Positions 3,921 to 64,000 are shown, counted from the first letter of the stretch. The stretch is DNA of 64,000 nucleotides from an uncultured Bacteroidales bacterium (GCA_964461045.1 CAYWSJ010000001.1:1114-65113), one strand, 5' to 3'. A program made the numbers and translations. The notes: a model not told the origin generated them from the letters alone.

Positions 3921-3984
3921 TTTAGTTACTTTAATTATATTTGATTTATATTGAAACGTAAAGACACTTTTAAGTATCCATACT

Positions 3985-5099: not shown

Positions 5100-5125
5100 G
5101 AATTAACACATAATTCATTACAAAG

Positions 5126-5152: not shown

Positions 5153-5460
5153 TTTCTTCTATTGAGTTGGGCGTTCTGCAATAATACCAACCTTGTCTGC
5201 CGGATTTATGCCCTTAGCGGTTAATAACCATTGCTGTAGCTTTTTTGCCAGTACCTTTAAATACAAAGACACCGGCGTTGCAAAATGCGGAAGTGTACCT
5301 CAGATATGATTAAAAAATAAATAAATATTTTCTGTATTATTTTGTTTTTCCTATTGCATGTCAGGAAATTAACTTGTAAATTGTTTTTTGGTGTTTGAAT
5401 AAAATGGACACTGTTTTATTAAGCTATTTCTTTAATAAATAATTAATTATACAAATTATT

Positions 5461-6234: not shown

Positions 6235-6245
6235 AAAAAAACAAA

Positions 6246-42517: not shown

Positions 42518-42559
42518 TTAAATAAAACAGAGTCAAAAATATAAATAACAGCAAAATGA

Positions 42560-43793: not shown

Positions 43794-46025
<2,232 letters not shown>

Positions 46026-46306
46026 TTCATTGCGGATTAAATAGTATAGCCTGTTCCAATCTTAAGAGTGCATTTATTTTGGATAAAGTGAAAAAATATT
46101 ATGAACGCAGAGAGATTGAGGACAGGCTCCTTTTTTTCTTAAGATAGACAAACTATGGTGTAATATCCTTAATTATACTTATTTTTATTTGCCAAACAGG
46201 GTAAAGTTGCCTTTAATAAAACCTTGAGATAAATGATAAAATTTTGTATAAATAAAATCCTCTCAATAATATATTTGTTTATATTGAAATTGAATTAAAT
46301 AAAAAA

Positions 46307-46990: not shown

Positions 46991-47015
46991 TAAAGAGCAA
47001 AAAATAAGAACACTA

Positions 47016-47402
47016 TTGAAAATGCAGTACCTCATTAGAATATTTTACATCTTACATGGCTTGGTTCACTTATTGTATATGGGTCACAGTCTTAATTACT
47101 TTGAATTGGAAAAAGGTTTTAACTGGCCACATAATTCAAGATTGCTTGCAAATTACTGTAGTTCTAAACAAATAATGTTGATTGCTGCCATCTGGTGCGC
47201 TATGGCTGCAACAATTTTTATATTGTCTGGAATCTTTGTTCTGATAAATCATCCCTGGTACAGTCTGTTAACCTTTATCGCAGTTGTTTTATCTACGATG
47301 CTTTTTATTGTGCTTTGGGACGGCAACAGGAAAAAATTGCACACACAGGGTGGTATTGGGATATTGATTAACATCATTATCCTTGTTTTTTTGTTAATTT
47401 AA
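47016..47402 (+). CDS. small integral membrane protein
   Basis: 128-aa ORF with 4 hydrophobic segments. No motif recognised. Confidence 0.4.
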   Translation: MKMQYLIRIFYILHGLVHLLYMGHSLNYFELEKGFNWPHNSRLLANYCSSKQIMLIAAIWCAMAATIFILSGIFVLINHPWYSLLTFIAVVLSTMLFIVLWDGNRKKLHTQGGIGILINIIILVFLLI

Positions 47403-47529
47403 AAAGAGTTTAATATCGGATTAAAACATAGCAAGATAACAATTCATAAAAAACATAGGGCGGAAGTATTAAAATTGAATAAAATAACTTTAATAACTTT
47501 GGTTTATAACACTGAACGAGATAAATAGC

Positions 47530-48321
47530 ATGGATAATCATTTTTACTATACCAAAATTCCAAAATCAAGAATAGCAACATTTGATGTTTATTCTGTTGG
47601 TTTATTGAAGCATCATGTCAGCGCCTTGCTGGAATTTGATGTAACTGACTGTCGTACAAAATTAAGCCAACTAAGAAAATCAGGCTCAAATATTTCTTTT
47701 AATGCATGGTTAATTAAAGCCATCAGCAAAGCTTTGGAAAAGCATCCTGAAGCCTCTTCTTTTCTTTACAATAAGAAAAAACTAATAACTTTTAAGGATC
47801 ACAATGTATCCTTTTTGGTAGAAAAGCAGCTGGGTGATCAAAAAGTACCATTCCCCATGGTTATAGACCAGGTAAATTTAAAGAGTGTCCCCGATATAAC
47901 CCGGGAGATTGAAAATGTAAAGAGCCAAAAAGTATCGGAAAAGGATATAGTACTGGATAAGAAGTCAAAGTTTATTGAAAGGCTGTATTATAATCTGCCT
48001 GGATTTTTAAGAAAAAAAGTATGGAAATATATTATAAATCATCCTGGATTAGCTTATAAAAAAATGGGAAATGTTTCTATAACATCCTTGGGTATGATAG
48101 GAAAGATTAATGGTTGGTTTATTCATAAATCAATTCATCCTGTTTCTTTTGGAATTGGTTCAGTGATTAAAAAGCCGACAGTTGTTGATGATGTGATAAA
48201 AATAAGAGAAATCCTGAATATGACAGTATTAATTGATCATGATGTGATAGATGGAGCCCAAATGGTAAGATTTCTAAAGGAATTAACCAGGAATATTGAA
48301 ATGGCCAACGAACTCAGCTAA
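47530..48321 (+). CDS. 2-oxoacid dehydrogenase E2-type acyltransferase, catalytic domain only
   Basis: 263 aa. C-terminal LIDHDVIDGAQMVRFLKEL matches the DHRxxDG catalytic motif. No lipoyl domain. Confidence 0.6.
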   Translation: MDNHFYYTKIPKSRIATFDVYSVGLLKHHVSALLEFDVTDCRTKLSQLRKSGSNISFNAWLIKAISKALEKHPEASSFLYNKKKLITFKDHNVSFLVEKQLGDQKVPFPMVIDQVNLKSVPDITREIENVKSQKVSEKDIVLDKKSKFIERLYYNLPGFLRKKVWKYIINHPGLAYKKMGNVSITSLGMIGKINGWFIHKSIHPVSFGIGSVIKKPTVVDDVIKIREILNMTVLIDHDVIDGAQMVRFLKELTRNIEMANELS

Positions 48322-48931
48322 ATGTTACCAGAAAAATCAGGATTCTTCTGAGTGAAATATAAAATTTTGCCCTTCCAGACCTGTCATAGTCTAATGTCTC
48401 CGTAAATCTATCCTAAAACTATTGACTTATTCAAGAATAAAAAATATATTTATTTTTTAATCCTGCGATTTTATGCATTTATATGAAATATTATCTTTTT
48501 TATCAAAAATGCTTGCATATTCTGTCTTTTGGGTTTGTAATTAATTAATTGATTATGAGTAAAATATTTTTGTTATTCCATTTTTTTCGAATTATCTAAC
48601 TTAAACTCTGTTAATTTCTAATCGTAATAAATAGAAAAAGTAAAAACAAACATATCTATCGATAGAATACCACTAAATAAAAGCATGCCATCTCTCATTC
48701 TTTTTTGGAGTTATTTAAAACTTTTCCGGAAAAAAGAAATCCTTCCAGCAATAAGAAAATTCTGTTTTGATTTATTTTTCCCTTTATTCAAGGAAAAAAG
48801 AATATCTGTTAGCACATTTTCAATTTCTGTATTTAAAAAACATTACTGGTATAATTTAACTGAAATACAAACGAATAATTATCAAATATTCCTTTTCAAT
48901 AAAAATAATATTAGCTTAAAAATATAAAACA

Positions 48932-51900
48932 ATGGATAAAATAAAAAATAAGTATAAAATGAAGAAGTCACTTGTATTTAAGGTTTTGCTATTATCAATT
49001 TTTATGTTGATACTAGGCCGGCAAATGTTTGCAACCAATATTCAGGTAAACAATATTGTGATTGTAGAACGTAATGATGCCGAAGAGTACATCATTGTAG
49101 AGTTCGATTTGAGCTGGGACAACAGCTTTAGGGTCGATGACGGTTTAAATACTAACTGGGATGCCGCCTGGGTATTCATGAAGTATAAAAAAACCACTGA
49201 AACGAATGTTCAGTGGGGACACGCTTCACTGCATGGTTCCGGACATACAATACCCGGTAATTTTAGCGGAAATCTTGGTTCTACAGGTGGGGTAAATAAA
49301 GGAATATTTATTTATCCGAGTGTAATTTTTAATGGGACAGCCTCAATTGAAAATGTAAGGTTAAGATGGGATTATGGTGATGATGGCTTGCTCCCTGAGG
49401 ACGAGGTAGATATTCGTGTGTTTGGCATAGAAATGGTATACGTCCCACAGGGTGACTTCTATGCAGGTAGTGGTGGCGATGAAGCAGCCAGATTTCATGC
49501 AGGTGGCGAAGCTGCAGATGTGCCTTTCCAGGTATCGGACGGTGCTTTTCAAATTGAAAATAGTTCTGGCCATCTATATGCCGCTGGAGAGATTCAAACG
49601 CCTGGGCCTTTGGATACTGACTACCCAACCGGATATAACGACTATTATGTAATGAAACATAGTGTCACTCAACAGGCTTATGTTGATTTTCTGAATACAC
49701 TTGATTATGCAAAGCAGAATGCCCGAACAGAAACAGAAGCAAATACAACAGGCTATATTTATGATACATACCGCCATAAGATCCAGGTACAAACAGCAGG
49801 TACTGCTGGTAGCTCTCCGGCAGTTTACTCCACTGATAATCCCTGGGTTGCTTGTGGTTATTTAAGTAAAGAAGATATTTTATCCTATTTAGATTGGGCT
49901 GCTTTACGTCCGATGACGGAGCTTGAATATGAAAAAGCTGCCAGAGGTCCTTCAAACCCGGTACCTAACGAATATGCCTGGGGAAACACAAGAATAGGGA
50001 AAGTAAACGATATATCCGATCCGGGTCTTGCTACAGAAGCTCCGGTTCCTTCGGGTTATCAAAGAGATATTACAATAGACCACAACAAGATAGATGAGGA
50101 TTTAACCGATTTCCCAGTATTGGTTAAACTTGACAGCAATAATTTTGATTTTACTAAATGCCGACCGGATGGTTTTGATATCAGATTTTATGATGCATCC
50201 GGTTCACCCCTGAAATATCAAAGGGAAAGACATGATGAACCCAACGAAAAAGCAGAATATTGGGTGAAAGTTCCTGAAATATCCAGCAGTGAGAATACTG
50301 TGATAACAATGGAGTATGGAAATAGTTCGGCAGCGGACGGTGAGGATGCTGCTAATGTCTGGAACGGCGGAAGTTTTGCATCAATCTGGCACTTAAATGA
50401 AGAAAGTGATGGAACCGCCGGTGAATACAATGACATTGTCGGTAACAATGATGGTCAGGGAATGGGTTCTTTTGCTGTTAGAGTTGACGAACAACTTGGT
50501 TTTGCCCAGGAATTTGAGGGCGATGATTCAATCTCTGTGCCATACGATGTATCACTGGATATCGAAAATAAAATAACAATAAGTGCCTGGGTTAATCCGC
50601 AGGATATTACAGGTGCTTCATTATCAGAATCTACTGCTGCAGACTGGAACGATAATCAGAGTATGACAAACCTTACTGTTGATGGAGATAGTCTGTTAGT
50701 TACGGATCATACATCAGTGGGAGAAAGAATATCTAAGCCTATTTCGCTTGATAGCATTAAGAAAGTGGGTACCAGTACAATAAACTGGGAAGACAATTAT
50801 GGTTACAAGGTGAAAGCTTTCACAAGTGATGGAAAATTTACTGTTCCGGAAGGTGTTACTGAAGTTGATGTTCTTGTCGTCGCTGGTGGCGGCGGAGGCG
50901 GAGGTAACTCCGGAGGCGGCACCGGTGGCGGCGGCGGCGGCGCCGGAGGCCTGGTATGGCAGGAAGGACATAGCGTAACGCCAGGATCTATAATTGATGT
51001 ACAAGTTGGCGCCGGTGGCGCCGGTGGCCCTGCTGATACCAGGGGCGAACCCGGCGAAAATAGTCAATTCGGAAGTATAGAAGCCATCGGTGGTGGCGCT
51101 GGTGATACCAGGGGCAGTTCATCTACCGATTGGGTTTCAGGAAATTACGGTGACGGTGGCTCCGGTGGCGGTTCCAACTATGCCAATATTGATCCGGGTG
51201 TTTATGGTGCTGGAACTGCCGGACAAGGTAATGATGGCGGTACCGGTGAACAGAATAACTCCGGACAGGGCGGAGGCGGCGGTGGCGCCGGCGCTCCAGG
51301 GGAAAATGGAGTAGCTGATCAGAGTACAACCCGCCCACATGGAGGTGATGGATTATACTACGGAGATGTATTTGGTGATAGTTATGGTGCAAGCGGCTGG
51401 TTCGCCGGCGGTGGTGGCGGCGGAAGTGCTGATGATGCTAACGTGGCAGGACCCGGTGACGGAGGCCAGGGTGGCGGCGGAAACGGTGGTGGAGACCCAG
51501 ATGGTCCGACTGTCGGCCAAACTAACACCGGCGGAGGCGGCGGTGGCGCCGGCGGAGCCGGAGGTGCCGGAGCTGATGGTGGTTCAGGTATTGTGCTTGT
51601 CAGATACAAAAGCCCGGAATCAGTAAATGTATATACTGTAGTAAACAGCGATAATACAACTCCTCCAACTTTTAAAGGACAACAGGTTTTTAATTCTGAT
51701 GGTACTTTTACTGTTCCTGAAGGTATTACAAAAGTAGATGTGCTTGTAGTAGCAGGAGGTGGTGCTGGCAGCGCCGGAACATCAGGCGGAGGAGGAGCAG
51801 GTGGCCTGGTATGGGAAACAGGCTATAGTGTCACTCCGGGAGAGAATATTAATGTAGTAGTCGGTGCTGGCGGTACAGGTGGTCCTAATCCGGGCAATGA

Positions 51901-53365
51901 TCCTCAAGCCGGCACAAATGGAGAAAATAGTTCCTTCGGATCCATAGTAGCTACAGGAGGAGGATATGGCTCATGTGGTCATCCTACCCCTGCAAATGCA
52001 GTTGCCGCAGCAAATGGTGGATCCGGTGGTGGAGCGATGGAATATAACGGAACTTATAGAGGTTTCGGAACAGGAATTTCAGGCCAGGGTAATAATGGTG
52101 GAGATGTTGCCGGAGGTTCTAATGCTACTGCCGGTGGTGCCGGTGCTGGTAGCGTTGGAAGTTCTGTAATAAACACTGCAGGTGATGGTGGCATTGGCCG
52201 GGATTTTAGCCATATTTTTGGAGCAGGCGTTGGAGACAATGGTTGGTTCGCCGGCGGTGGCGGCGGCGGATTTCCTTCATCACCCGGCCAGGGAGGCCTT
52301 GGTGGAGGTGGAAATGGTATTGCCGGAGGCAATGCACCAGCAGCTTCCAATGAAGGAATGCCCAACACCGGTGGCGGTGGTGGCGGCGGCTGGAATTACA
52401 ATGCCGGTACCGGCGCTGATGGAGGATCTGGTGTTGTTATTGTCCGATGGGGAAACTATGCTTCCAAAGGTGATGAAATACCTGGAATTGAACATGGCGA
52501 CGATCTGTCAGGAAAGTATTTATGGGTTATGCAGGAATTGAAAACAAACAATCCTGATTATTCCCCCTCTCTGAATAGTCTGGATATAGAAATAAAAGGT
52601 GAAGCCGTTGTTACAGGCAAAGGAGAAGATACATACCAAATGAGCGTTTACGATGGTAATCTGAAAGGTTATATCAACAGCCAGGAAGTATCCTCTTCCA
52701 GTTTAACCAATGATGTATACCAACACGTAGCCATTACATACGATGGGTCTTTCCAGCGTATTTATATTAATGGTCTGCTAACAGGAACCAGTTCTTTAAC
52801 CGGAAATATAAATACCAATGCAAATAACCTGCTAATGGGAACAAACCTTGAAGGGATTCTTGACGAAGTGCGGTTATCTGATACTTCAAGATCACAAGCA
52901 TGGCTGAAAGCAGAATTTCATTCCGGAAATCTTGATTTATTAACTATTGGCGGAGAAGGTGCCCTGAGTAATGCTGCTGTTGAAAATGTTGAGTACGACG
53001 CTGTAGGTTCTGCCGGACCTCTTCGGGTTGGTTTTGGAGCAACAGCAAGTAGTTCGAGAACTGCTGCCGGGTCTTCTTATTGGGGTATTCCCGGCTTGAG
53101 TGGAAATGTTTGGGAACGTACGGTTACTGTCGGAAATGCTACAGGTCGTTCATTTAACGGCTTACACGGCAATGGCTTACTTAATGCAAGTGGTCTGTTT
53201 GATGTTACCAATTGGGATATTAACGGTCTTGGTTTTCGGGGAGGTGCTTTTCACCATCAGATTAGTGATGGTTATTTCAGAATCTCTGACAGAACAGCTG
53301 CTGAACACACAAGTGATGCCCGTGGTTTTTCATGGGGTGGAAGAGGAGTACGTACAGCACCATAA
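48932..53365 (+). CDS. 1,477-aa secreted multidomain protein: split FGE/SUMF1-like domain enclosing DUF2341-like and LamG-like domains, with the LamG itself split by two glycine-rich domains
   Basis: Likely start ATG 48959 (MKKSLVFKVLLLSIFMLILG). FGE N-part 49424-49988 (MVYVPQGDFYAG..YVMKHSVTQQAYVDFL..LRPMTELEYEKAARG..YAWGN). DUF2341-like 50068-50325 (ITIDHNKIDEDLTDFPVLVKL..). LamG N-part to ~50600 (..ITISAWVNPQD). Glycine-rich domains 50815-52452. LamG C-part 52618-52920 (..YQHVAITYDG..IYINGL..LDEVRLSD). FGE C-part 53093-53362 (SGNVWERT..FRGGAF..). Confidence 0.85.
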   Translation: MDKIKNKYKMKKSLVFKVLLLSIFMLILGRQMFATNIQVNNIVIVERNDAEEYIIVEFDLSWDNSFRVDDGLNTNWDAAWVFMKYKKTTETNVQWGHASLHGSGHTIPGNFSGNLGSTGGVNKGIFIYPSVIFNGTASIENVRLRWDYGDDGLLPEDEVDIRVFGIEMVYVPQGDFYAGSGGDEAARFHAGGEAADVPFQVSDGAFQIENSSGHLYAAGEIQTPGPLDTDYPTGYNDYYVMKHSVTQQAYVDFLNTLDYAKQNARTETEANTTGYIYDTYRHKIQVQTAGTAGSSPAVYSTDNPWVACGYLSKEDILSYLDWAALRPMTELEYEKAARGPSNPVPNEYAWGNTRIGKVNDISDPGLATEAPVPSGYQRDITIDHNKIDEDLTDFPVLVKLDSNNFDFTKCRPDGFDIRFYDASGSPLKYQRERHDEPNEKAEYWVKVPEISSSENTVITMEYGNSSAADGEDAANVWNGGSFASIWHLNEESDGTAGEYNDIVGNNDGQGMGSFAVRVDEQLGFAQEFEGDDSISVPYDVSLDIENKITISAWVNPQDITGASLSESTAADWNDNQSMTNLTVDGDSLLVTDHTSVGERISKPISLDSIKKVGTSTINWEDNYGYKVKAFTSDGKFTVPEGVTEVDVLVVAGGGGGGGNSGGGTGGGGGGAGGLVWQEGHSVTPGSIIDVQVGAGGAGGPADTRGEPGENSQFGSIEAIGGGAGDTRGSSSTDWVSGNYGDGGSGGGSNYANIDPGVYGAGTAGQGNDGGTGEQNNSGQGGGGGGAGAPGENGVADQSTTRPHGGDGLYYGDVFGDSYGASGWFAGGGGGGSADDANVAGPGDGGQGGGGNGGGDPDGPTVGQTNTGGGGGGAGGAGGAGADGGSGIVLVRYKSPESVNVYTVVNSDNTTPPTFKGQQVFNSDGTFTVPEGITKVDVLVVAGGGAGSAGTSGGGGAGGLVWETGYSVTPGENINVVVGAGGTGGPNPGNDPQAGTNGENSSFGSIVATGGGYGSCGHPTPANAVAAANGGSGGGAMEYNGTYRGFGTGISGQGNNGGDVAGGSNATAGGAGAGSVGSSVINTAGDGGIGRDFSHIFGAGVGDNGWFAGGGGGGFPSSPGQGGLGGGGNGIAGGNAPAASNEGMPNTGGGGGGGWNYNAGTGADGGSGVVIVRWGNYASKGDEIPGIEHGDDLSGKYLWVMQELKTNNPDYSPSLNSLDIEIKGEAVVTGKGEDTYQMSVYDGNLKGYINSQEVSSSSLTNDVYQHVAITYDGSFQRIYINGLLTGTSSLTGNINTNANNLLMGTNLEGILDEVRLSDTSRSQAWLKAEFHSGNLDLLTIGGEGALSNAAVENVEYDAVGSAGPLRVGFGATASSSRTAAGSSYWGIPGLSGNVWERTVTVGNATGRSFNGLHGNGLLNASGLFDVTNWDINGLGFRGGAFHHQISDGYFRISDRTAAEHTSDARGFSWGGRGVRTAP
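50815..52452 (+). repeat. two tandem glycine-rich domains (~265 and ~255 aa)
   Basis: Each starts F(T/N)SDG(K/T)FTVPEG(V/I)T(E/K)VDVLVVAGGG and ends ADGGSG(I/V)V(L/I)VR(Y/W), at 50815-51612 and 51685-52452. The GGN-codon-rich sequence spawns off-frame and antisense ORFs. Confidence 0.75.
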
Positions 53366-53431
53366 ATTGATAACAATTAAAACAAAATTACAAAATGAAT
53401 ATTGAACTGTACAGCCGATAAAAAACATTAA

Positions 53432-56400
53432 ATGCAACGACTGATATTATATTTTCTTTTAATATTCTTCCAGGCAGGCACTCTTTTTGCCCAACCTGAT
53501 TATATGCAAGTTACCACCCAGCCTCAAAATACCGAGGCTGGCCAGGTCGTTGCGGGAAATCCGGTTGTAACAGTTTATGATTCAGATGATAATCCTGTAG
53601 GGGCAGGAACAAATGTTAATGTTACCCTGAATAAGCATAGTTTTGCAGGATCAAGCACACTTACAGTTGCAACAGATGATAACGGAAGAGCCGTTTTTTC
53701 AAACCTGGTTATTGATACTGCTGCAAACAATTATCAACTAACTTTTAGCTCCGGCTCTCTTTCTGATGTTGCTTCAAATAATTTTAATGTTACTTCTGCT
53801 GCTCCTGACTATATGTCTATAACAACACAACCCGGAGATACTATCCAGGGTTATCCTGTTGCCGGTTTCCCAACTGTAACAGTTTATGACACTTATGGTA
53901 ATCCGGTGCAGAACATCGAAATCACAGTTACTGTCAATAAAAATTCATTAAACGGTACTTTAACTGAAACAACAAATTCAAATGGTACAGCCTTATTTAA
54001 CAATCTTATTATAGATGTTTTTGACACTGGTTATGAGTTAACTTTTGATGCTGATGATACGGATGCTCCGGGTGTTGCAAATGTAACTTCAACAACTTTT
54101 GAAATATTCGAAGAACAAGCCACCATTACAACAATCAACCAACCTGTGAATAGTGTTGTTTCATATCCCCTGGAAGGAGATAATGTTATTCAGGGACCAG
54201 CCGTTCTGGTAAAGAATATGTCCGGGGATTCACTTCAGGGTATTAATATCATTGCTGAATTATCGGGAGGGTCATTTGGCAGTTCCAGTATAGATACAAT
54301 AACAACAGATTCCGATGGTATTGCTGTATTTGACAGTTTATTAATTAATAACCCGGGAACTGGATACCAGATCATATTCAGTACAGGAACCAATGCCGTG
54401 GCTGATGAAATTTCAACTACTTTTGATGTTCTTTCGGAAAGTGGTGTTTTAATTCTGAATCAGCAACCTGAGGAGAGCATAGAAGCCTACCCGGTCGAGG
54501 GGCCTCCGACAATATACCTGGAAGATGGAGGTTCTCCAATAATTGGGACTGATGTAACTGCATATTTGAGTAAGAATAGTTTTTCCGCGGAAAGCAAACT
54601 TACTGTAACCACAGATAATTCCGGTATTGCTGTGTTTGATAGTTTATTTATTGATTCAGTAGACACGGACTATCAGATTTATTTTAAAGCCTCACAAGCG
54701 GGTGTTTCAACTATTATTTCCGATTCTTTTGATGTGGTTGAGGAACTTGCTACCTTATCTGTAAATCAACAACCGGAGTTAACCATATCCGGAGAATTAA
54801 TTAATGGTCCTCCATCAGTGGAATTAATTGATAAAAGTACAGGAAATCCACCTTCTTCTCCTGTAAATATTTATGCATACATTAATAAAAACGACTTTGC
54901 CGGAGAAAGTGATACTATAGCTACTGCTAAACCGGCCAATAACGGAATTGCTACTTTTGACAGTTTGATTGTTAATCATTCTGAAAATGATTATGAAATT
55001 AGATTCTCCACAAATTCATCAGGTATTGCGGATATTACTACTGATTCATTCGATATAATACCTGTAGCGGGCACTATGACAATTGATCCTCAGCCTGTAG
55101 AAACTATAGAAGGTTACCCGGTAGCCGGACCCCCAAAAATTACAATTCTTGATCCTGGTGATAATCCTCTACAGGGAATTTCTGTCGAAGCCATACTGAA
55201 TAAAAACGGTTTTGCTTCAGGCACAACAACCCTATCAACAAATGCTGATGGAGAAGCGATTTTTGATGACTTGATTATTAACGATGTAGCTGCAAATTAC
55301 AACATTCAGTTTAATGTTGATGTAAGTACAGGTGTTGTAAGTCAAACTTCAAATAATTTTGATGTTGTTGAGGAAACTGCTTTTCTTACTGTTCAGAATC
55401 AGCCTTCTTTAACAGTTGCAGGAGAGGTGGTGAATGGCACGCCATCGGTCTTGCTTGAAGACGCTGTTACAGGTGACCCGATTGCAAATGCTACAATTAA
55501 TGTGTCACTGAATAAAGGAAATATTTCCGGAGGAACGACATCTGTATTAACAAATTCAAGCGGTATAGCTGTTTTTGATGATTTATTTATAGACAATGAC
55601 GATCAGGATTATGAATTAATATTTTCCACAGGTACTTCCGGAATTGCTGATATTCATTCTGGACAATTTGATGTGGTACCTGTTGCAGGAGAAATTTCCA
55701 TAATTCAGCAACCACAGGAAACTGTCGATGGATACACTGTTGCAGCCCCCCCAGCAATAGAAATATTGCGGACAGATGGTATTACGCCTATGCCAGGGTT
55801 AGATGTAACAGCCACTATAAACAAAAATAATTTTACAGGCCCCAGCACAACAACGCTAACTACAGATGTAAACGGAGAAGCTTTTTTTGATAACCTCACA
55901 CTTAACCAGGCTGCTGATGATTATGAAATTACTTTTACGCTTGATCCTTCTGACAGTATACCCGATACAACTACAACAAAATTCAATGTAGTCAACGAAG
56001 TCGCTGTTATTACAATTCAAAATCAGCCTCAACTTACCATTGCTGGTGAATACATAAATGGCCCTCCTTCTGTAATACTTGAAACACCAAGTGGAACACC
56101 AATTAGCGGAGGAACAATTTATGTAAGCCTGAATCAGTCGGATTTTGCCACAGAAAGTGTTGTTTCCGCTACTTCAAATTCAAGCGGGATTGCAACCTTT
56201 GATAGCCTGATTATCGATGATGCAAACACGGGCTATGAAATAACATTTTCTTCAAATTCTTCCGGTATAGCGCCCAAAACATCTTCCTCCTTTGAAATTG
56301 TTGATCCTGAAGGTCTCATAGAAATAACTCAGCAACCTCTTGAAACTGTTAATGGCCAACCTGTCGCAGGTCCACCTTCTGTGTCAATCACAGAAACTAA

Positions 56401-59400
56401 TGGTGATCCATGGGGTGGCAATGAAGTTGATATTACAGTATCTATTAATAAAAACGGATTTAGCAGTGGAACATTAACAAAAACAACAACCGGAGGTAGC
56501 GCTGCCTTTGATAATCTAATTCTAAATAGCATTGATACGGATTATCAATTAACTTTTTCTACTGACATTTCTGAACGAATACCATCTGAAAAAACTGATA
56601 GTTTTGATGTGGTAGCTGTAACAGGTAATATGAATATTACTCTTCAGCCTTCAGAAACCGTTGCGGGTGATCCCATTAACGGCCCCCCAACAGTGATACT
56701 GACAAATTTATCAGGCAATCCGGTTCAGGGAGTTGATATCACTGCCTCTCTTAATAAAAATTCATTTAATGGAAGCAGTACTACAACGGTTACTACTAAC
56801 TCCAGTGGAGAGGCGGTTTTTGATAACCTCATGATTGATGTTTTTGATACCGGTTACGAAATCACTTTTTCGTCGGAGGCCTCGGGAGTAGCAGATATTA
56901 CATCCAATCCTTTTGAAGTAACAGATGCTACTCTGTCAATGAGCGTGACAACGCAACCACAACAATCTGTTGCAGGAGACACTGTTGAAGGTTATCCTGC
57001 TGTAACAGTAACCAATGGTGGTGGCGGAATTTCCGGAGTAGTTGTTACAGCTTCTATAAACAAAAACAATTTTGACGGTGCAAGCACACTAACTGCTACT
57101 ACAGATGGAGGAGGAGTCGCTACATTTGATAATCTTATTTTGAATACTGCCGACACAGATTATAAGATAACTTTTAATGCTGATTATTCAGGAGTTCCAA
57201 ATGCATTATCAAGCCCTTTTGAAATAATTGCTGCTTCACCTGATGATATAATTGTTACTACTGAACCTTCTCAAACTGAAGCAGGATCAGTTATTCAAGG
57301 ACCTCCAACTGCCTTGTTGCTTGATGAATTCGGAAATCCGGTTAGCGGAGTAAATATTGATGTTGTTCCTAACCAGCATAACTTTGCATCAGGAACAACC
57401 TCTAAAACCACCAGCAACAATGGTAAAGCTATTTTTGATGACCTGGTTTTAAATATAGCTGAAGATAATTACCAGTTATTGTTTACCGAGTCGGGCGGAG
57501 CTGACGCTAATTCTGATTATTTTGAAGTCACCAGCGCTCAGGAAGATACACTTAAGATTCTTAACCACCCATTTGAAACAGTAGCCGGTGCAGCAATTAA
57601 TGGTCCCCCTACAGTCCTTGTTGAAGATGAATATGGAAATCCTGTTACAGGTATTACGGTTTCTCTGAATGAAGAGGGTGGCTATCCTATTGATGCAGGA
57701 ACACTTAACCTGGAGACCCAGGATAACGGACAGGTCTCTTTTACTGACCTTGTAATTAATACAGAAAATATTGGCTATCAATTGCGTTTTAGCACCGGAG
57801 GAATTCAAAATCTTTCAAATAAATTTAATGTCGTTCCCGGTACCATCTTTCCAAGGTTTCATGGAAGCACACACAGCGGTTATGTAACTCACCTAAATAA
57901 CAATAATTCACTAGGACAAACTCCTACCCGTATTGAAATTGACATGCAGCCACAGGAAAGTGTAGTCGGATCTAATATTGAAGGACCTCCTGAAATTGTG
58001 GTTTATGATGCAACTGATCAACCGGTGTCAAATGTTTCAGTAACAGTTAGCGGTGCTGTATTCAGCAGCGGAACAGTAACCCGCACAACTGATGAAAATG
58101 GTCATATTCCCTTTAATGACCTTGTAATTGATACTAAAGGGACATATAATTTAACTTTTACTGCTGATGACTATCCTTCAGTAACCGCTCAGTCTAATGA
58201 TTTTGAAGTCATTGATGCAATAGCTACAATGACTATGGACATACAACCCCAGGAGACAGTAGCCGGACAACCCGTGGCAGGTCATCCAGCAGTTCTGCTT
58301 GAAAATTCTATAGGAATGCCTATGGAGGGAGTTGATATTAGAGTTTATATCAACCAGCATTCGTTCGTGTCGGGAAATACTACTGTTCAAACCGATGCAA
58401 ATGGGTTGGCTGTTTTTGATGATTTGGTTATTAATAAGGCTGCTGAAAATTATCAGTTGATTTTTGATGCAGATTATTCCGGAGTACAGAATCTAACTTC
58501 AGGCAGTTTTAAAGTGATTAATGCCAATGCCCATAACCTGCAAGTTACAACGCAACCCATGGAAACTTATCAGGGAGCAACAATTGAAGGTCCACCTGTT
58601 GCTCGTGTTACAGATGAATACGGCAATCCAGTGCCTGGTGCTGAAATCTCTGTATCAGAAGTTTCAGGGGCTATTGATGCTGGTATTACCAATATTACTT
58701 CAGATATTAATGGTTATGCTACTTTTTCTACATTGGTTATAAACGACAATGGTACTTATCAACTAAACTTTTCATCTTCGGGTCTAACGGACGCTTTATC
58801 CAATAATTTTCAGGTGGTTCCCGGTACCGTTGCTAATCGTTTTAAAGGAAGCAGCCATAGTGGATTTGGAAATAAATCAATTCAAAATAAACTCCTGGGT
58901 CAAAAACCTGTTCGAATGGAGATGGTGACACAGCCGCTGGAAACTGTAGCCGGATTTGCTATTGAAGGTCCACCGGTTATTGGTGTTTATGATGCACTTG
59001 ACAACCCCGTTCCGAACGTACAAGTTACTGTAACTGCTATTGGCGGTTCTCTTGACAACGGAACATACACAAAAACAACAAACGAACAGGGAGAAATTAC
59101 CTTTAATGACCTGATTATAAACACTTCAGGTACATATCAGCTATCCTTTACTGCTGATAATTATTCCGGTACAGTGTCTGATTTACAGTCTTCTAACTTT
59201 GATATAGTTGACCAGGTTTATAACATGCAAATAGAAACCCAACCTGGAAATACTACTGCTGGTCAAACTGTTAATGGAGTTCCTAAAGTTTCAATTACAA
59301 ATTTTATTAACCAGCCATTATCAGGAGTGGAGGTTACTGTGTATATCAATCAGTTTAGCTTTGCTTCCGGAACAATGACAGTCCAAACAGATGAGAATGG

Positions 59401-62400
59401 TGAAGCAATTTTTAATGATCTTGTAATTAATAATGCCTCTGCAGATTACCAATTAATCTTTGATGCAGATTATTCAGGTGTGAGTAATGTTGCTTCGGAT
59501 AATTTTGACATTACACCCGCTGCGCCTTCGTCTATGACCATAAATACACAACCTTTTGAAACTACCGAAGGAGCTGCAATAGAAGGACCACCATCAGTTG
59601 CTTTAACAGATGATTTCAATAACCCGGTAACAGGTGAAAATATATCTGTATCCGAAAGTGGTGGTTATATCTTTGACGGTGGAACCACAACTCTCAGTAC
59701 CAATGAAAATGGATTGGTAACTTTTTCAGATTTGGTTATCAATGCAATTGGAACTTATAGTCTTACATTTAGTCATTCTTCTGTAAGTGACTTGAATTCT
59801 GACATTTTTAATGTAATATCAGGAACTGTTTCAAACAGGTTTAAAGGGAGCTCACATAGCGGTTTTGGAAAACAGGAAACAAACAACAAATTATTAGGTC
59901 AAATACCCTCAAGAATAGAAATTATTGGTCAGCCGCAAGAGACCGTAGTTGGAGAAGTAATAGAAGGCCCTCCACAAATTGTTGTTTATGATGCCCTGGA
60001 TAATACTGTAGCTAATGTAGACATTTCTGTTACAGTTCCCGGTGGTTTTAAGCCTGGCTCAACCACGACCATATCAACAGATGAAAATGGCGAAATCACA
60101 TTTAACAATCTGATAATTGAATCTGTGGGTAGTTATCAATTAAGTTTTTCAGCTGATAATCATCCCGGAGTTACCGCTCAGTCTGAAACTTTCGAAGTAA
60201 TTGATCAGCAACTATTTCTTTCTGTTACCACACAGCCTGGAGAATCAACAGCTGGGCAACCAGTAGCGGGCCATCCAACTGTGCAACTGGCCAATTCAAT
60301 CGGTCAGGGCTACCAGGGAGTAGACATTACGGTTTATTTGAATCAATTCGGGTTTTCTTCTGCTCCTTCTACCCAGACTGTAACTACAAATTCATCTGGC
60401 TACGCTGAGTTTGACCAAATTGTGATCAACCAGGCAGCGGAAAATTACCAGTTACTCTTTGATGCCAATTATGGCGGGGTTTTAAATGTCTCCTCTGATA
60501 CTTTTAATGTGATCCATGCCGCAGCCGATCATCTTACTACAGTTACCGAACCAGAAGAAACAGTCTCGGGAGCTACGATAAGCGGACCACCTTCAGTAAG
60601 AGCTGTTGATGCATTCAATAATCCCGTTGATGGTGTAAATATTAGTGTATCGGAAACTGGTGGATATACTTTTGATGCTGGAACATTGTCAGCCAACTCC
60701 AATGAAAATGGGATATCTGCCTTTAATGATTTAATTATTAACGACATAGGTCAATATAGCTTGACATACAGTGCTTCGGGGCTTCCCGATCTTGTCTCTA
60801 ATAACTTCAATGTAATTTCAGGAACTATATCTTACCGATACAAAGGTAGTACTCATAGTGGTTTTTCCCAGGTAGCAGCCAATGATAAATATTTAGGCCA
60901 AACACCTGCCAGAATAGAAATTCAGGCACAGCCAATGGAAACAATTGTTTCATCATCCATTGAGGGGCCTCCTTCGATAATTGTTTATGATAATGTTGAT
61001 AACCCTGTCTCTGGTATCACAATTAGAGTTAGTGTGGATGGATTCTTTACTCCGGCAAGTACAACAGAAATACAAACAAATGCCAGTGGAGAAGTTGTTT
61101 TTGATAACTTGGTTATAGACCAGACAGGATTCTATACATTAACTTTTGAGGCTATTGGATATGGAAATGTAGATCCTGTAAATTCACAGGAATTCGAGGT
61201 GGTTAATCAAATGTTAAATGCCAGTATTGTTACTCAGCCATCTGAAACAGTTGCAGGTGATCCACTTGCCGGACCTCCTGAAGTTAAACTTGAAAATGAT
61301 TTCGGTCAGGGCTTCCAGGGTGTTGATGTAATAGCTCATATCAATCAGTCAAATTACACTCCCTCATCAACAGATACAGTAACAACAGATGCGAACGGCC
61401 TGGCAACCTTCAGTAACCTGGTACTTGAGAATGCAGAAGAAAACTACCAGGTTATATTTGAAATTGATTATACCGGAGTGAACAATCTTTCATCTGACTT
61501 TTTTGATGTTGTACCTGCACCTGCCAGTCAGTTTGTGATGATTACCCAGCCTGAAGACGGACTTGCTGGAGCTCCTGTTGGTGGTCCACCGGCTGTAGGC
61601 CTTCAGGATGCTTACAATAATGCAATAGCTGGTGAGACAGTAACAGTTTCCGAAGTAGGAGGTTATAGTTTTGATGCTGGTACAGTAAATATAACAACCA
61701 ATGAGAACGGAACAGCAGTATTCAATGATCTTTTAATTAATACAGACGGAACATATAATTTGAATTTCAGTACTTCTCTGGCAGGAGTAAGCGACCTACA
61801 GAGCAATTCATTTACCTTGCAGCCAGGTAATATTGCCAATAGATTTAAAGGAAATACTCATAGCGGATTCTATACGCAAAATAGAGAAAATGTATTGTTA
61901 CAACAAGTTCCTGAAAGAATAGTGATTTTGACACAACCTATGCAATCAGTAGTAAGTGTACCTATTCAGGGACCACCTTCGCTTAGAGTCTACGACCAGA
62001 CTGATATTTCTGTTTCAGGTGTGGCGGTTACCGCCTCAGTTGTTGGTGGTTCTACATCTCTTTCCGGTACACAAACACTTACAACCGATGTAAATGGAGA
62101 GGTCCTTTTTGATGACATCAGTATTAATCAAACAGGCACTTACCAATTACATTTCGAGGTTGCAGGGTATCCTGATGTAGAAGTAAATTCACAAAACTTC
62201 GAAGTCATTAATCAAACATTATCAATGGAAGTGAACGAACAACCACAAAATACAGAAGCCGGACAAATCATAGGAGGACATCCTGCTGTATCCATTACAA
62301 ATGAAGTTGGTCAGCCCGCACCAGCAGGCATCGATGTGGTTGCTTATACAAATCAGAATAGCTTTTCTTCTGATCCTTCTTATGATACTGTTCAAACAAA

Positions 62401-64000
62401 CTCTTCAGGTATTGCAATTTTTGAAAACCTTGTAATAAATGAAGCTTCAGATGATTATCAGATTGTTTTTGATGCAGTTTATTCTGGAGTATCCAATGTT
62501 AGTTCAAACGTATTTACAATTTTTCCCGCACCGGCTGATAATATGCAAATAATTACACAACCTCTTGACGGAGAGGCAGGTTCTGTAATCTCAGGACCAC
62601 CCACAATAGGTGTATACGATGTTTATGGAAACAGTATTCAGGGAATTGATGTAGGAGTATCAGAAATAGGTGGTGAACCTCTAAATGGCACAACAACAAT
62701 TGCTACAGATGATAATGGAATTTCTGTATTTACCGATCTTATAATAGACAATCCTGGAACATATCAGCTATTGTTCAATGCCAATGCAGCAGGAGTAAGC
62801 AATATTCAATCTGAAAGCTTTAATGTTATCTCCACAGGAACAATTCACCGGTTCAAAGGTGGCTCCCACAGTGGATTTATTTCATCTGAAATTGATAATC
62901 AGTTGCTTTCAGAACCTCCTGAAGTCGAATTACCGGTATTTACAATCTTTGAGGATACCTTATGCCAGGGTACATTAAATACTCAATATACAGCAGAAGC
63001 AGCAAATAATGATTCAATAAGATATGAAATTACTGTTCCTTCTGCAGGAAGCATTGATAACATCACAGGGGTGCTTGATTTACAAACAAACTTTTATGGT
63101 GAGTTTTATGTAAAAGCAACTTCATATGGATATAACGGACCCAAATCTGATTCTATGAGAGTAATAGTAGAACCAGAAATTGATGCTCCAGTGTTTACAG
63201 ATCCTGTATTGGATGTCTGCCAGGGAGATAATACCACTTATACTGCCACTTCGGTACATACTGATTCCATTTCTTATTCAGTATCTCCTTCATTTGCAGG
63301 AGCTATGGATGCTGGTAGCGGAGAAATAAACTGGGATTCAGGGTTTTCCGGCTCAGCTCAAATTACTGCAACTGCAGGTGAAGTTGATGATTGTGGAGGA
63401 CAGAAACAAACAAGTGTTGAAGTAACTGTAAATCCAGAAGTTGAAACACCTGTGTTTACAGAAGGAGCAACCTCACTCTGTCAGGATTCTCCAAATGAAA
63501 CTTATACCGCTACCGCAGCTCATGCTACAGATATAACTTATTCGCGTGCACCTGCTGAGGCTGGTACTATTGATCCGAATACAGGCGAAATGAACTGGGC
63601 ATCTGATTTTTCAGGTACTGTTACTATTACAGCCAGGGCAGAAGGACAATGCAATGGACCAAAAGACAAAGATCTTACTGTTACAATACATCCTAAACCT
63701 GCTACTTCTGTTATTTCGGGAGAGGCGGATATTGCCTGTAACGCCACTGGAGAGGTTTACAGTGTCGATTTACATACAGATGCAAATTATAACTGGTCAG
63801 TCCCAACTGGCGCATCTATTACAAACGGTGCAACAGGCCCGGAAAATAACAGCATTACAGTTGACTTCTCCGACAATAATGGATATATCCGTGTAACAGA
63901 GACCAGTCAATTTGGATGTGTTGGTGATGAACAAGAATTACAGGTAACATTGTATGGATGTAACCTTTCTTCAGACTTTGAAGCTTCTGAAACCGAAACA
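53432..64000 (+). CDS. giant repetitive surface protein / adhesin, 5' part (at least 3,523 codons; 3' end outside the window)
   Basis: ATG 53432 is preceded by an in-frame TAA (53429-53431). By manual translation no stop appears in this frame through 64000 (10,569 nt), so it is missing from the ATG..stop track. Signal peptide MQRLILYFLLIFFQAGTLFAQ. Roughly thirty ~100-aa Ig-like modules follow, then Cys-containing PKD-like units. Confidence 0.85.
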   Translation, partial: MQRLILYFLLIFFQAGTLFAQPDYMQVTTQPQNTEAGQVVAGNPVVTVYDSDDNPVGAGTNVNVTLNKHSFAGSSTLTVATDDNGRAVFSNLVIDTAANNYQLTFSSGSLSDVASNNFNVTSAAPDYMSITTQPGDTIQGYPVAGFPTVTVYDTYGNPVQNIEITVTVNKNSLNGTLTETTNSNGTALFNNLIIDVFDTGYELTFDADDTDAPGVANVTSTTFEIFEEQATITTINQPVNSVVSYPLEGDNVIQGPAVLVKNMSGDSLQGINIIAELSGGSFGSSSIDTITTDSDGIAVFDSLLINNPGTGYQIIFSTGTNAVADEISTTFDVLSESGVLILNQQPEESIEAYPVEGPPTIYLEDGGSPIIGTDVTAYLSKNSFSAESKLTVTTDNSGIAVFDSLFIDSVDTDYQIYFKASQAGVSTIISDSFDVVEELATLSVNQQPELTISGELINGPPSVELIDKSTGNPPSSPVNIYAYINKNDFAGESDTIATAKPANNGIATFDSLIVNHSENDYEIRFSTNSSGIADITTDSFDIIPVAGTMTIDPQPVETIEGYPVAGPPKITILDPGDNPLQGISVEAILNKNGFASGTTTLSTNADGEAIFDDLIINDVAANYNIQFNVDVSTGVVSQTSNNFDVVEETAFLTVQNQPSLTVAGEVVNGTPSVLLEDAVTGDPIANATINVSLNKGNISGGTTSVLTNSSGIAVFDDLFIDNDDQDYELIFSTGTSGIADIHSGQFDVVPVAGEISIIQQPQETVDGYTVAAPPAIEILRTDGITPMPGLDVTATINKNNFTGPSTTTLTTDVNGEAFFDNLTLNQAADDYEITFTLDPSDSIPDTTTTKFNVVNEVAVITIQNQPQLTIAGEYINGPPSVILETPSGTPISGGTIYVSLNQSDFATESVVSATSNSSGIATFDSLIIDDANTGYEITFSSNSSGIAPKTSSSFEIVDPEGLIEITQQPLETVNGQPVAGPPSVSITETNGDPWGGNEVDITVSINKNGFSSGTLTKTTTGGSAAFDNLILNSIDTDYQLTFSTDISERIPSEKTDSFDVVAVTGNMNITLQPSETVAGDPINGPPTVILTNLSGNPVQGVDITASLNKNSFNGSSTTTVTTNSSGEAVFDNLMIDVFDTGYEITFSSEASGVADITSNPFEVTDATLSMSVTTQPQQSVAGDTVEGYPAVTVTNGGGGISGVVVTASINKNNFDGASTLTATTDGGGVATFDNLILNTADTDYKITFNADYSGVPNALSSPFEIIAASPDDIIVTTEPSQTEAGSVIQGPPTALLLDEFGNPVSGVNIDVVPNQHNFASGTTSKTTSNNGKAIFDDLVLNIAEDNYQLLFTESGGADANSDYFEVTSAQEDTLKILNHPFETVAGAAINGPPTVLVEDEYGNPVTGITVSLNEEGGYPIDAGTLNLETQDNGQVSFTDLVINTENIGYQLRFSTGGIQNLSNKFNVVPGTIFPRFHGSTHSGYVTHLNNNNSLGQTPTRIEIDMQPQESVVGSNIEGPPEIVVYDATDQPVSNVSVTVSGAVFSSGTVTRTTDENGHIPFNDLVIDTKGTYNLTFTADDYPSVTAQSNDFEVIDAIATMTMDIQPQETVAGQPVAGHPAVLLENSIGMPMEGVDIRVYINQHSFVSGNTTVQTDANGLAVFDDLVINKAAENYQLIFDADYSGVQNLTSGSFKVINANAHNLQVTTQPMETYQGATIEGPPVARVTDEYGNPVPGAEISVSEVSGAIDAGITNITSDINGYATFSTLVINDNGTYQLNFSSSGLTDALSNNFQVVPGTVANRFKGSSHSGFGNKSIQNKLLGQKPVRMEMVTQPLETVAGFAIEGPPVIGVYDALDNPVPNVQVTVTAIGGSLDNGTYTKTTNEQGEITFNDLIINTSGTYQLSFTADNYSGTVSDLQSSNFDIVDQVYNMQIETQPGNTTAGQTVNGVPKVSITNFINQPLSGVEVTVYINQFSFASGTMTVQTDENGEAIFNDLVINNASADYQLIFDADYSGVSNVASDNFDITPAAPSSMTINTQPFETTEGAAIEGPPSVALTDDFNNPVTGENISVSESGGYIFDGGTTTLSTNENGLVTFSDLVINAIGTYSLTFSHSSVSDLNSDIFNVISGTVSNRFKGSSHSGFGKQETNNKLLGQIPSRIEIIGQPQETVVGEVIEGPPQIVVYDALDNTVANVDISVTVPGGFKPGSTTTISTDENGEITFNNLIIESVGSYQLSFSADNHPGVTAQSETFEVIDQQLFLSVTTQPGESTAGQPVAGHPTVQLANSIGQGYQGVDITVYLNQFGFSSAPSTQTVTTNSSGYAEFDQIVINQAAENYQLLFDANYGGVLNVSSDTFNVIHAAADHLTTVTEPEETVSGATISGPPSVRAVDAFNNPVDGVNISVSETGGYTFDAGTLSANSNENGISAFNDLIINDIGQYSLTYSASGLPDLVSNNFNVISGTISYRYKGSTHSGFSQVAANDKYLGQTPARIEIQAQPMETIVSSSIEGPPSIIVYDNVDNPVSGITIRVSVDGFFTPASTTEIQTNASGEVVFDNLVIDQTGFYTLTFEAIGYGNVDPVNSQEFEVVNQMLNASIVTQPSETVAGDPLAGPPEVKLENDFGQGFQGVDVIAHINQSNYTPSSTDTVTTDANGLATFSNLVLENAEENYQVIFEIDYTGVNNLSSDFFDVVPAPASQFVMITQPEDGLAGAPVGGPPAVGLQDAYNNAIAGETVTVSEVGGYSFDAGTVNITTNENGTAVFNDLLINTDGTYNLNFSTSLAGVSDLQSNSFTLQPGNIANRFKGNTHSGFYTQNRENVLLQQVPERIVILTQPMQSVVSVPIQGPPSLRVYDQTDISVSGVAVTASVVGGSTSLSGTQTLTTDVNGEVLFDDISINQTGTYQLHFEVAGYPDVEVNSQNFEVINQTLSMEVNEQPQNTEAGQIIGGHPAVSITNEVGQPAPAGIDVVAYTNQNSFSSDPSYDTVQTNSSGIAIFENLVINEASDDYQIVFDAVYSGVSNVSSNVFTIFPAPADNMQIITQPLDGEAGSVISGPPTIGVYDVYGNSIQGIDVGVSEIGGEPLNGTTTIATDDNGISVFTDLIIDNPGTYQLLFNANAAGVSNIQSESFNVISTGTIHRFKGGSHSGFISSEIDNQLLSEPPEVELPVFTIFEDTLCQGTLNTQYTAEAANNDSIRYEITVPSAGSIDNITGVLDLQTNFYGEFYVKATSYGYNGPKSDSMRVIVEPEIDAPVFTDPVLDVCQGDNTTYTATSVHTDSISYSVSPSFAGAMDAGSGEINWDSGFSGSAQITATAGEVDDCGGQKQTSVEVTVNPEVETPVFTEGATSLCQDSPNETYTATAAHATDITYSRAPAEAGTIDPNTGEMNWASDFSGTVTITARAEGQCNGPKDKDLTVTIHPKPATSVISGEADIACNATGEVYSVDLHTDANYNWSVPTGASITNGATGPENNSITVDFSDNNGYIRVTETSQFGCVGDEQELQVTLYGCNLSSDFEASETET
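54731..56610 (+). repeat. three ~625-bp di-module super-repeats inside the giant ORF
   Basis: E-type modules (FDVVEE..NQP.LT.(S/A)GE..NG.PSV.L.D) start at 54731, 55361 and 55985. They alternate with V-type modules (F(D/E)(I/V)(I/V)..(A/E)G....(I/T)..QP.ET..G..VA.PP). Confidence 0.7.
57836..62834 (+). repeat. five ~1.0-kb tri-module super-repeats inside the giant ORF, delimited by a conserved linker motif
   Basis: The linker (P/S/T)G(T/N)....R(F/Y)(K/H)G(S/N/G)(S/T)HSG(F/Y) starts at 57836, 58820, 59819, 60818, 61823 and 62834, giving spacings of 984, 999, 999, 1005 and 1011 bp. Confidence 0.85.
62930..64000 (+). repeat. ~250-bp Cys-containing PKD-like units at the distal end of the visible giant ORF
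   Basis: Units begin ..PVFT..LCQG.., ..APVFTDPVLDVCQGDN.., ..TPVFTEGATSLCQDSPN.., ..PKPATSVISGEADIACNATGEVYSV..NYNWSVP..GCVGDEQELQVTL. Each has a Cys pair ~60-70 aa apart. Confidence 0.55.

Follow-up and report, generated by a model that had tools for sequence, protein, structure and literature searches.

PorK, GldK and GldJ carry a cysteine-less version of the fold of the formylglycine-generating enzymes (FGE), and this fold serves as an insertion and docking hub of the T9SS (type IX secretion system) and the gliding machinery (PMC12421860). The FGE-fold proteins GldJ and GldK are central to gliding (PMC12635249, PMC12421860). In phages, a glycine-rich domain is reported to form the receptor-binding tip of Pam3 gp24 and S16 gp38, and the S16 gp38 adhesin is a separate protein that is attached to the gp37 fibre (PMC9608196). 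A third system of interest is encoded by the sprC-sprD-sprB-sprF genes of Flavobacterium johnsoniae, a T9SS-bearing member of the Bacteroidota, where accessory genes are found directly upstream of the gene for a giant repetitive surface protein and are read in its direction. Traits of all three are found in a pair of genes on the plus strand of a stretch of 64,000 nt from an uncultured lineage of the Bacteroidota (the whole stretch is called the window below, and positions in it are counted from its first letter). Gene 1 (48932..53365) encodes a secreted multidomain protein of 1477 amino acids with a cysteine-less FGE-fold scaffold and a nested insert, and gene 2 (53432..64000) encodes a giant repeat protein of at least 3523 amino acids.

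The pair is similar to sprCDBF in layout and to PorK/GldK in the hub principle, and it borrows phage tip domains, while it lacks traits that define each of these families. Giant adhesins with a co-encoded accessory protein are a kind of system already known; a literature search found no published description of the architecture of gene 1 or of the pair. The two genes look like a new, putative two-part adhesion system. The explanation that we favour, with modest confidence, is that they form a conserved and functionally coupled pair, in which a putative non-enzymatic binding protein built on an FGE hub and a giant fibre would act together in attachment. The attachment mechanism is proposed with less confidence than the module as described.

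The gene pair and its conservation

Gene 1 is an open reading frame (ORF) that starts with an ATG, and its assignment is based on the ORF, its translation, Pfam matches and 17 full-length orthologues. Gene 2 is open from the ATG at 53432 and reaches the end of the window without a stop codon. An earlier note on this DNA, made from the sequence alone, had described the two genes as co-oriented and 66 bp apart, and the ORF coordinates and the common strand agree with this; the intergenic spacer (53366..53431) is 66 nt long and has 21% GC.

The 17 full-length orthologues of gene 1 are 51-78% identical to it and all stem from metagenomes or metagenome-assembled genomes (MAGs); those that carry a name belong to uncultured Bacteroidetes or Bacteroidales. 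Nine of their loci were examined (P0004, P0010, P0007, P0017, P0011, P0015, P0012, P0002, and P0001). A giant gene encoding 2,600-5,600 amino acids is found directly 3' of gene 1 on the same strand in 9/9 of them, separated from it by 67-133 nt after correction of three mis-called starts. These giants are orthologues of gene 2, with 43-57% identity to it over the first 600 amino acids; they are colinear from residue 1 and share its signal peptide. The upstream neighbours are different in every case (ATP-grasp, glycosyltransferases, hydrolase, transhydrogenase, histidine kinase/CSD, ADP-ribosylglycohydrolase, and in the window an ORF similar to 2-oxoacid dehydrogenase E2). Downstream of the giant, L003 has convergent genes; in L018, which stems from the L001 genome, a DinB_2 gene comes first and a convergent subtilase gene after it. 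Since all nine orthologues are paired while the flanking genes differ every time, the pairing is not due to chance, and the conserved unit consists of exactly these two genes. Conservation of the neighbourhood had been proposed as a check in the earlier note, and the pair is conserved in the nine loci examined.

The family is narrow: clustering at 50% identity leaves essentially a single complete representative of the nested architecture, and clustering at 90% about 17 clusters. A genome scan returned two close loci, both known already, and one distant match. When the last 1000 amino acids of gene 2 were used as query, no protein longer than about 1,740 amino acids was returned, and the C-termini of the giants were therefore taken from the loci. 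Two neighbourhoods from the wider family, which shares the scaffold of gene 1, differ from each other. In the Algoriphagus marincola locus, a secreted protein of at least 1193 amino acids (L014 11630-15208) is encoded two genes downstream of an FGE + PKD_6 + Gly_rich_2 protein (P0093). It has no Pfam match, is different from gene 2, and contains repeats of about 90 amino acids of the type GDQxxCG...QWQxRTxGxW...TYDPGTISQTTQYRRG. The P0032 locus (L015 10001-15769) instead encodes tandem FGE-like paralogues of 890 and 710 amino acids and a third, truncated ORF.

Architecture of the two proteins

Both N-termini read by eye as Sec signal peptides, MKKSLVFKVLLLSIFMLILGRQMFA/TN in gene 1 (residues 1-34, 48932..49033, ending in GRQMFA/TN) and MQRLILYFLLIFFQAGTLFA/QP in gene 2 (residues 1-20, 53432..53491), the latter being kept in all orthologous giants. 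The earlier note's signal sequences on both proteins are borne out by this reading of the sequence. A lipobox Cys is absent from both signal peptides. The orthologues of gene 1 have the consensus N-terminus MKK...LFA/TNIQV, and all of them begin at the equivalent of Met10, so the true start of gene 1 may well be at 48959; nothing else would be altered by this.

The signal peptide of gene 1 is followed by an N-terminal β-sandwich (49034..49444, residues 35-171), which is kept across the wider scaffold family and corresponds to residues 1-137 of an AlphaFold2 (AF2) model, all of them β-structure with a predicted local distance difference test score (pLDDT) above 90. Next comes the N-terminal part of an FGE-like fold (49445..50086, residues 172-385), while the C-terminal part, which contains the motifs GNVWE, RGG, and GVRTAP, is found at the far end of the protein (52943..53362, residues 1338-1477). 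The Pfam family FGE-sulfatase (PF03781) matches residues 236-354 with 27.4 bits (cut-off 23.3), covering profile positions 35-137 of 255. The nesting was tested by joining residues 35-385 to residues 1338-1477 and predicting the structure of this spliced scaffold by AF2 with an alignment of 66 sequences. The model has a pLDDT of 85 and a predicted template modelling score (pTM) of 0.89, with low confidence at the splice only. Foldseek aligns it with bacterial and human FGE, CalU17, and EgtB over about 380-400 columns (E 1e-6 to 1e-3), the FGE structures matched being 5nyy, 6muj, 2q17, and 1y1e (E 1e-6 to 1e-4). It takes both pieces to complete the FGE fold, and the description of gene 1 in the earlier note as a nested FGE/glycine-rich protein is thus right, as judged by Pfam coordinates, structure prediction, and Foldseek.

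The Pfam alignment of the spliced scaffold is again limited to profile positions 35-137, the C-terminal half having diverged too far for the hidden Markov model (HMM). Sequence-only searches of the PDB with the full protein, a profile, or the spliced scaffold gave marginal matches to FGE, CalU17, and Pam3, and structure prediction was therefore needed; matches to scFv linkers and to designed 'Cake' repeats in these searches were spurious. No NCBIfam model matched the full protein or the scaffold above noise, even at E<=10. In most relatives from the wider family the β-sandwich and the whole FGE-like region are contiguous, and C-terminal additions such as Hint, DUF1566, Fib_succ_major, PKD_6, and sometimes Por_Secre_tail (P0064 and P0092) are found.

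When gene 1 and its orthologues are aligned (18 sequences), no column contains an invariant or near-invariant Cys. The protein encoded in the window has three, at positions 308, 410, and 1015, none of them in the C-terminal RGG...GVR region. The positions that we take to be those of the two catalytic Cys, going by human FGE, are variable in the orthologues. Gene 1 has the fold of the catalytic FGE/SUMF1 proteins but not their two conserved active-site (copper-site) Cys, and as no cysteine is conserved it is not a working FGE. Judged by its sequence it is a cysteine-less FGE fold, from which no catalysis would be expected.

It has to be considered that gene 1 might still be an enzyme of the FGE/EgtB superfamily that modifies the giant, for instance at the HSGF linkers described below. 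The FGE fold and the above-threshold match to FGE-sulfatase fit such a role, and a short motif that is repeated and strongly conserved in the giant is a possible modification site. EgtB is furthermore composed of DinB and FGE-like domains, and a DinB_2 protein of 162 amino acids is encoded just downstream of the giant in L018 (12703-13191, 249 nt 3' of it). This neighbour is found in one locus only and may be a coincidence. A DinB domain is lacking in gene 1, no target motif of the CxPxR type could be seen in gene 2, and the fold is often non-catalytic in the Bacteroidota, as PorK, GldK, and GldJ exemplify (PMC12421860). Together with the lack of a conserved Cys in the 18 sequences this makes the enzyme very improbable.

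The absence of the two catalytic Cys and the presence of loop insertions are shared with PorK, GldK, and GldJ, and a non-enzymatic hub is what the favoured explanation calls for. Gene 1 is, however, not a lipoprotein and has no match to the GldJ and GldK models, and the conserved Cys used in GldK for disulfide coupling is missing from it. True FGEs, not PorK, hold its top ranks in Foldseek. It also has the extra N-terminal β-sandwich and a lectin-like and phage-like insert of about 950 amino acids.

This insert, which is placed in one loop of the FGE fold between residues 385 and 1338, starts with a DUF2341 domain (50087..50371, residues 386-480; PF10102 at residues 413-476, 52.7 bits). No literature bearing on the function of DUF2341 was found. 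It is followed by the N-terminal third of a LamG domain (Laminin_G_3; 50372..50611, residues 481-560), which was read from the sequence ...ITISAWVNPQDI, and the C-terminal part of LamG is found at 52472..52942 (residues 1181-1337), where Laminin_G_3 matches residues 1231-1324 at profile positions 52-149 of 151. The DUF2341-LamG modules of other proteins match gene 1 up to about residue 559 and stop there. The LamG domain appears to be split by two glycine-rich domains, which would be a second nesting. The first of these covers about residues 620-895 (50789..51616) and the second about residues 896-1180 (51617..52471), the best Gly_rich_2 stretch of the latter being residues 923-1173. Gly_rich_2 (PF21722) reaches 156 bits over two stretches of the protein, and the segment of the first domain has 37% Gly. 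Both are modelled as a TNF-like sandwich with a polyglycine lattice, with pLDDT mostly 70-95. Foldseek matches them to the tail tip of Bxb1 (E 5e-6), the fibre of Pam3 (E 2e-5), and, more weakly, the glycine-rich domain of ALK, and 231 viral proteins in BFVD match at E<=0.001. DUF2341-LamG and glycine-rich modules also recur within many giant proteins of 2,000-7,800 amino acids.

The Gly_rich_2 domains are what gene 1 has in common with the phage tip adhesins Pam3 gp24 and S16 gp38, with the Bxb1 tail tip, and with ALK/LTK, and the pair has a separate 'head' gene beside a 'stalk' gene, as is the case for S16 gp37/gp38. It differs from the phage adhesins in being cellular and in having its glycine-rich domains in tandem, nested in the LamG and FGE folds. 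Gene 1 further lacks a helical or shaft domain for trimerisation, a chaperone gene was not seen, and attachment to the giant is putative.

Gene 2 consists mainly of 29 tandem Ig-like repeats of about 95 amino acids each (53504..62824, residues 25-3131), which were delimited using an iterated HMM built on gene 2 itself. Pfam recognises Big_1-, CarboxypepD_reg-, and MG4-like repeats, and PKD_6. From about residue 1470 (57818..62986) the motif positions show that the repeats are arranged in threes of about 330 amino acids, with six linkers between them. The linker is about 35 amino acids long and has the pattern G-T-x-x-N-R-[FY]-x-G-x-x-H-S-G-F...L-G-Q-x-P-x-R-[IM]-E. Its six copies in the window (57854-62900) are found at residues 1475, 1803, 2136, 2469, 2804, and 3140, and five or six copies occur in the majority of the giants examined among the orthologues (seen in L001/L018, L003, L005, L007, and L010). 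Across the orthologues no other element of the giants appears to be as well conserved as this linker, and a role in docking, metal binding, or modification is possible for it. The last part of gene 2 (62939..64000, residues 3170-3523) contains PKD_6-like modules and is incomplete, with the Pfam match to PKD_6 at residues 3424-3504. These last 354 amino acids are 66% identical to the same part of the complete L018 orthologue (3877 amino acids). The full length of gene 2 is probably about 3,900 amino acids.

With its tens of Ig-like repeats after a signal peptide, and its distal non-repeat modules, gene 2 is similar to the giant adhesins of the Big_1/invasin type. It is different from intimin and invasin as no outer-membrane barrel, LysM anchor, or features typical of type I secretion systems were matched, the repeats starting already at residue 25, and as the three-repeat unit with its HSGF linker forms a higher order and the sorting signals vary among the orthologues.

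An analogy to SprB and its accessory proteins SprC, SprD, and SprF was drawn in the earlier note. The gene layout agrees with it, as an accessory gene lies directly upstream of, and co-directional with, a giant repetitive surface protein in T9SS-bearing Bacteroidota, and the analogy might be taken further to homology, with gene 2 as a divergent SprB-like adhesin and gene 1 as its SprC/SprD-like support in a gliding operon. The giant of L010 (5619 amino acids) contains SprB repeats, HYR, and a type-B C-terminal domain (CTD) of the CHU_C family according to a precomputed Pfam record, and the FGE fold is that of the gliding proteins GldJ and GldK (PMC12635249, PMC12421860). L010 is the only such orthologue. 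The 3523 amino acids encoded in the window contain no SprB repeats (PF13573), the L018 giant has no type-B CTD (PF13585/TIGR04131), and no gene for a PorP/SprF-like carrier is found behind the giant in L003 and L018, the loci with a visible downstream region. The unit has two genes and not four. Gene 1 gave no matches of the SprC/SprD type in profile comparisons with NCBIfam or Pfam, has no NCBIfam match that would relate it to any named gliding protein, GldJ and GldK included, and lacks a conserved Cys for disulfide coupling in the gliding track. The analogy is one of layout only, and homology with the sprCDBF operon is highly unlikely.

Transcription of the pair

The earlier note had described the spacer between the genes as AT-rich and free of a terminator, and this holds: the minimum free energy of its RNA is -0.3 kcal/mol (z +1.0), which is no better than that of shuffled sequences, and a terminator scan reported no plus-strand terminator-like site. 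Neither was the Bacteroidota promoter motif TAnnTTTG found in the spacer. Upstream of gene 1 there is a presumed promoter or leader region of 610 nt (48322..48931), the previous ORF ending at 48321. This gap was also said to be AT-rich and to have no convincing ORFs, in agreement with its GC content of 0.22-0.29 (about 25%), compared to 0.39-0.59 inside gene 1, and with its single ORF of at least 80 amino acids (48685-48927), which is a low-complexity AT-rich sequence. Rfam gave no matches in the whole window, the gap included. No convincing inverted repeats of the kind found at invertible promoters were seen in the gap, and the idea of an invertible promoter was rejected, the repeats there being AT-rich and of low complexity. 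One TAnnTTTG motif is found about 367 nt upstream of the gene 1 ATG; this motif does not occur above the background rate, and its distance is not conserved. Matches to promoters of the sigma-70 type are as frequent as in shuffled sequence, and no promoter could be assigned. Gene 1 is preceded by gaps of about 230-1290 nt in most of the nine orthologous loci, the exceptions being L005 and L009, where a short ORF with no Pfam match has been called close upstream. Such long upstream non-coding regions fit a dedicated promoter.

The spacers of the orthologous loci are not all alike. The closest relatives of the window (L017, L016, L004, and L003) have no stable intergenic hairpin, while L006, L007, and L009 share a strong stem-loop directly 3' of the gene 1 stop (z -4.6 to -6.6), which is absent from the window. 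It is found in the spacers between the gene 1 stop and the gene 2 start, at 14339-14417 in L006, 6883-6962 in L007, and 14366-14453 in L009. The stem-loop is perfect, with the core CCCTAAGGG-N-CCCTTAGGG and outer pairs that differ in a compensatory way. In L006 it is followed by TATTTTTT, a T-run, and an A/T-rich motif, AAGCNTTTAAT, is conserved after it in all three loci. L005 has a different strong hairpin at the same position (z -3.7). The gene 1 proteins of the loci that share the stem-loop are just 63-71% identical, and the element is no dispersed repeat. Attenuation, stabilisation of the 3' end, and the binding of a regulator are possible roles for it.

These hairpins raise the possibility that the genes are linked in function yet transcribed separately or expressed differentially, with a terminator or an attenuator at the end of gene 1 and a separate promoter or operator for gene 2. 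The pair would then be a conserved neighbourhood and not a simple operon. The T-run in L006, the position of the element, which is conserved in spite of the divergence of gene 1, and the conserved motif behind it all fit this possibility, and the perfect palindrome could alternatively bind a regulator. The window and its four closest relatives, however, are without a stable hairpin, the window spacer has no TAnnTTTG, and where the hairpin is present the distance to the gene 2 start is just 35-45 nt, which leaves little room for a promoter. Intercistronic hairpins often just attenuate transcription or stabilise the upstream mRNA. Separate transcription is on balance somewhat unlikely. The stem-loops in the orthologues mean that the operon claim is plausible for the window but not general across the family.

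Secretion, location, and proposed role

The organism has a T9SS, as is evident from a protein of 1126 amino acids encoded on the minus strand of the window (31894-35274), which contains K319L-like/PKD repeats, Sde0182_C domains, and a Por_Secre_tail. The sorting signals of the orthologous giants appear to differ, as the CTD is of type A, type B, or not recognisable depending on the locus. Weak type-A matches are found in the precomputed records of L004 and L005, and the type-B domain of L010 is mentioned above. The L018 giant, which is the closest complete one, ends with about 385 amino acids (11300-12454) after its PKD domains that are without Pfam or NCBIfam match, and its final residues ...ICPETGNIYTVPNDFAR resemble the start of another PKD_6-like module. 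The C-terminus of gene 1 is the end of the FGE fold, with no match to Por_Secre_tail (PF18962/TIGR04183). The surface module of the earlier note is therefore a reasonable label for gene 2, while it is unproven for gene 1, which has a Sec signal and neither CTD nor lipobox.

In the proposed mechanism, one promoter in the 610-bp upstream region would drive both genes in the window. The β-sandwich and the cysteine-less FGE fold would form a scaffold or docking hub, as in PorK, GldK, and GldJ, and gene 1 would provide the ligand-binding 'head' of the fibre or a decoration of it. The long fibre made by gene 2 would provide the reach, and both together could lead to attachment to a surface, a polymer, or another cell. 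Two proteins found when the gene 2 repeats were used as query bear on this division of labour. P0123 (1559 amino acids) and P0172 (1499 amino acids) have an N-terminal, distal Gly_rich_2 domain followed by repeats of the Big_1/MG4 type related to those of gene 2, and P0123 additionally contains cellulose-binding domains (CBM_3). In both proteins, the two functions that the pair divides between gene 1 and gene 2 are naturally fused. The recurrence of DUF2341-LamG and glycine-rich modules in giant proteins and the arrangement seen in Algoriphagus are further hints in favour of the proposed role.

Several observations weigh against the proposed role. The evidence from fusions comes from 2/120 matches in that search. 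No recognisable CTD is found in the L018 giant of 3877 amino acids, and the C-terminus of gene 2 is beyond the window. No T9SS CTD, lipobox, or β-barrel was found in gene 1, which could remain periplasmic. The AF2 model is poor over the LamG parts of the insert, so the second nesting is based on sequence comparison only. Finally, the intergenic hairpins in four orthologous loci oppose an obligatory co-transcription throughout the family.

A protein that stays in the periplasm could serve the giant as a chaperone, assembly factor, or export factor without ever reaching the surface. The signal peptide of gene 1 without CTD or lipobox would suit such a helper, a giant repetitive cargo plausibly needs help before transport, and the synteny of the two genes is strict. 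LamG, DUF2341, and phage-type glycine-rich domains are, however, typical of extracellular binding and of giant surface proteins, a lectin-like protein of 160 kDa would be an unusual chaperone, and the relatives P0064 and P0092 with the same scaffold in the wider family bear a Por_Secre_tail. We therefore regard a purely periplasmic function as unlikely.

A more specific version of the attachment hypothesis would make the pair a cellular counterpart of the long tail fibres of phages such as S16, with gp37 as fibre and gp38 as tip. The FGE hub of gene 1 would then dock on the six HSGF linkers, or on the distal end of the fibre, and travel with it to the surface even though gene 1 itself lacks a secretion signal for this, resulting in a multivalent 'decorated fibre' with its specificity in the glycine-rich tips. 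This is speculative, drawn by analogy, and we consider it distinctly unlikely in this detailed form.

Giant repeat proteins are common in the Bacteroidota, and hardly any of them is known to have a partner or a ligand-binding part assigned to it. A strictly syntenic partner composed of binding modules (LamG, DUF2341, and two phage-type domains) gives a testable model for how the specificity of such a fibre might be obtained. The putative hub would also take the recently recognised principle of the cysteine-less FGE fold further than PorK, GldK, and GldJ, the core proteins of the T9SS and of gliding, and the glycine-rich domains represent a cellular use of receptor-binding domains of phage type. 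The family is narrow and stems from metagenomes and MAGs only. The analysis establishes the gene structures, the domain architecture, the loss of the catalytic residues, and the conserved synteny, while all statements on function, from co-transcription and physical interaction to the surface location of gene 1 and an adhesive role, are inferred.

The surroundings of the pair in the window contain other genes related to the cell envelope. Polysaccharide-synthesis genes at 9109-10542 and 41783-43264 encode a sugar transferase (Bac_transf), a glycosyltransferase (WecG/TagA), and a polysaccharide deacetylase, placing the module within a region rich in cell-envelope and surface functions. Within 43371-49000, genes for a Fur-family regulator and a catalase-peroxidase (GC 0.43-0.50) give way to an AT-rich stretch (GC 0.22-0.35) that contains two ORFs with no Pfam match and an ORF of 263 amino acids with only the catalytic domain of 2-oxoacid dehydrogenase E2. 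The break in composition just upstream of the module may be a junction. An ORF of 1513 amino acids on the plus strand (10739-15280) has a signal peptide and no Pfam family above threshold, and its C-terminus, ...TYTYKVMVF, resembles a T9SS CTD. Paralogy was considered for this ORF and for the Por_Secre_tail protein at 31894-35274, and was rejected as BLAST gave no matches between them and either gene of the pair. In L003, the minus strand of the divergent upstream stretch 1562-7921 contains a DUF2341 ORF (157 amino acids), a Laminin_G_3 ORF (427 amino acids), an ORF of 1442 amino acids without Pfam match, and a Por_Secre_tail protein. These may represent a second surface-protein gene in fragmented form.

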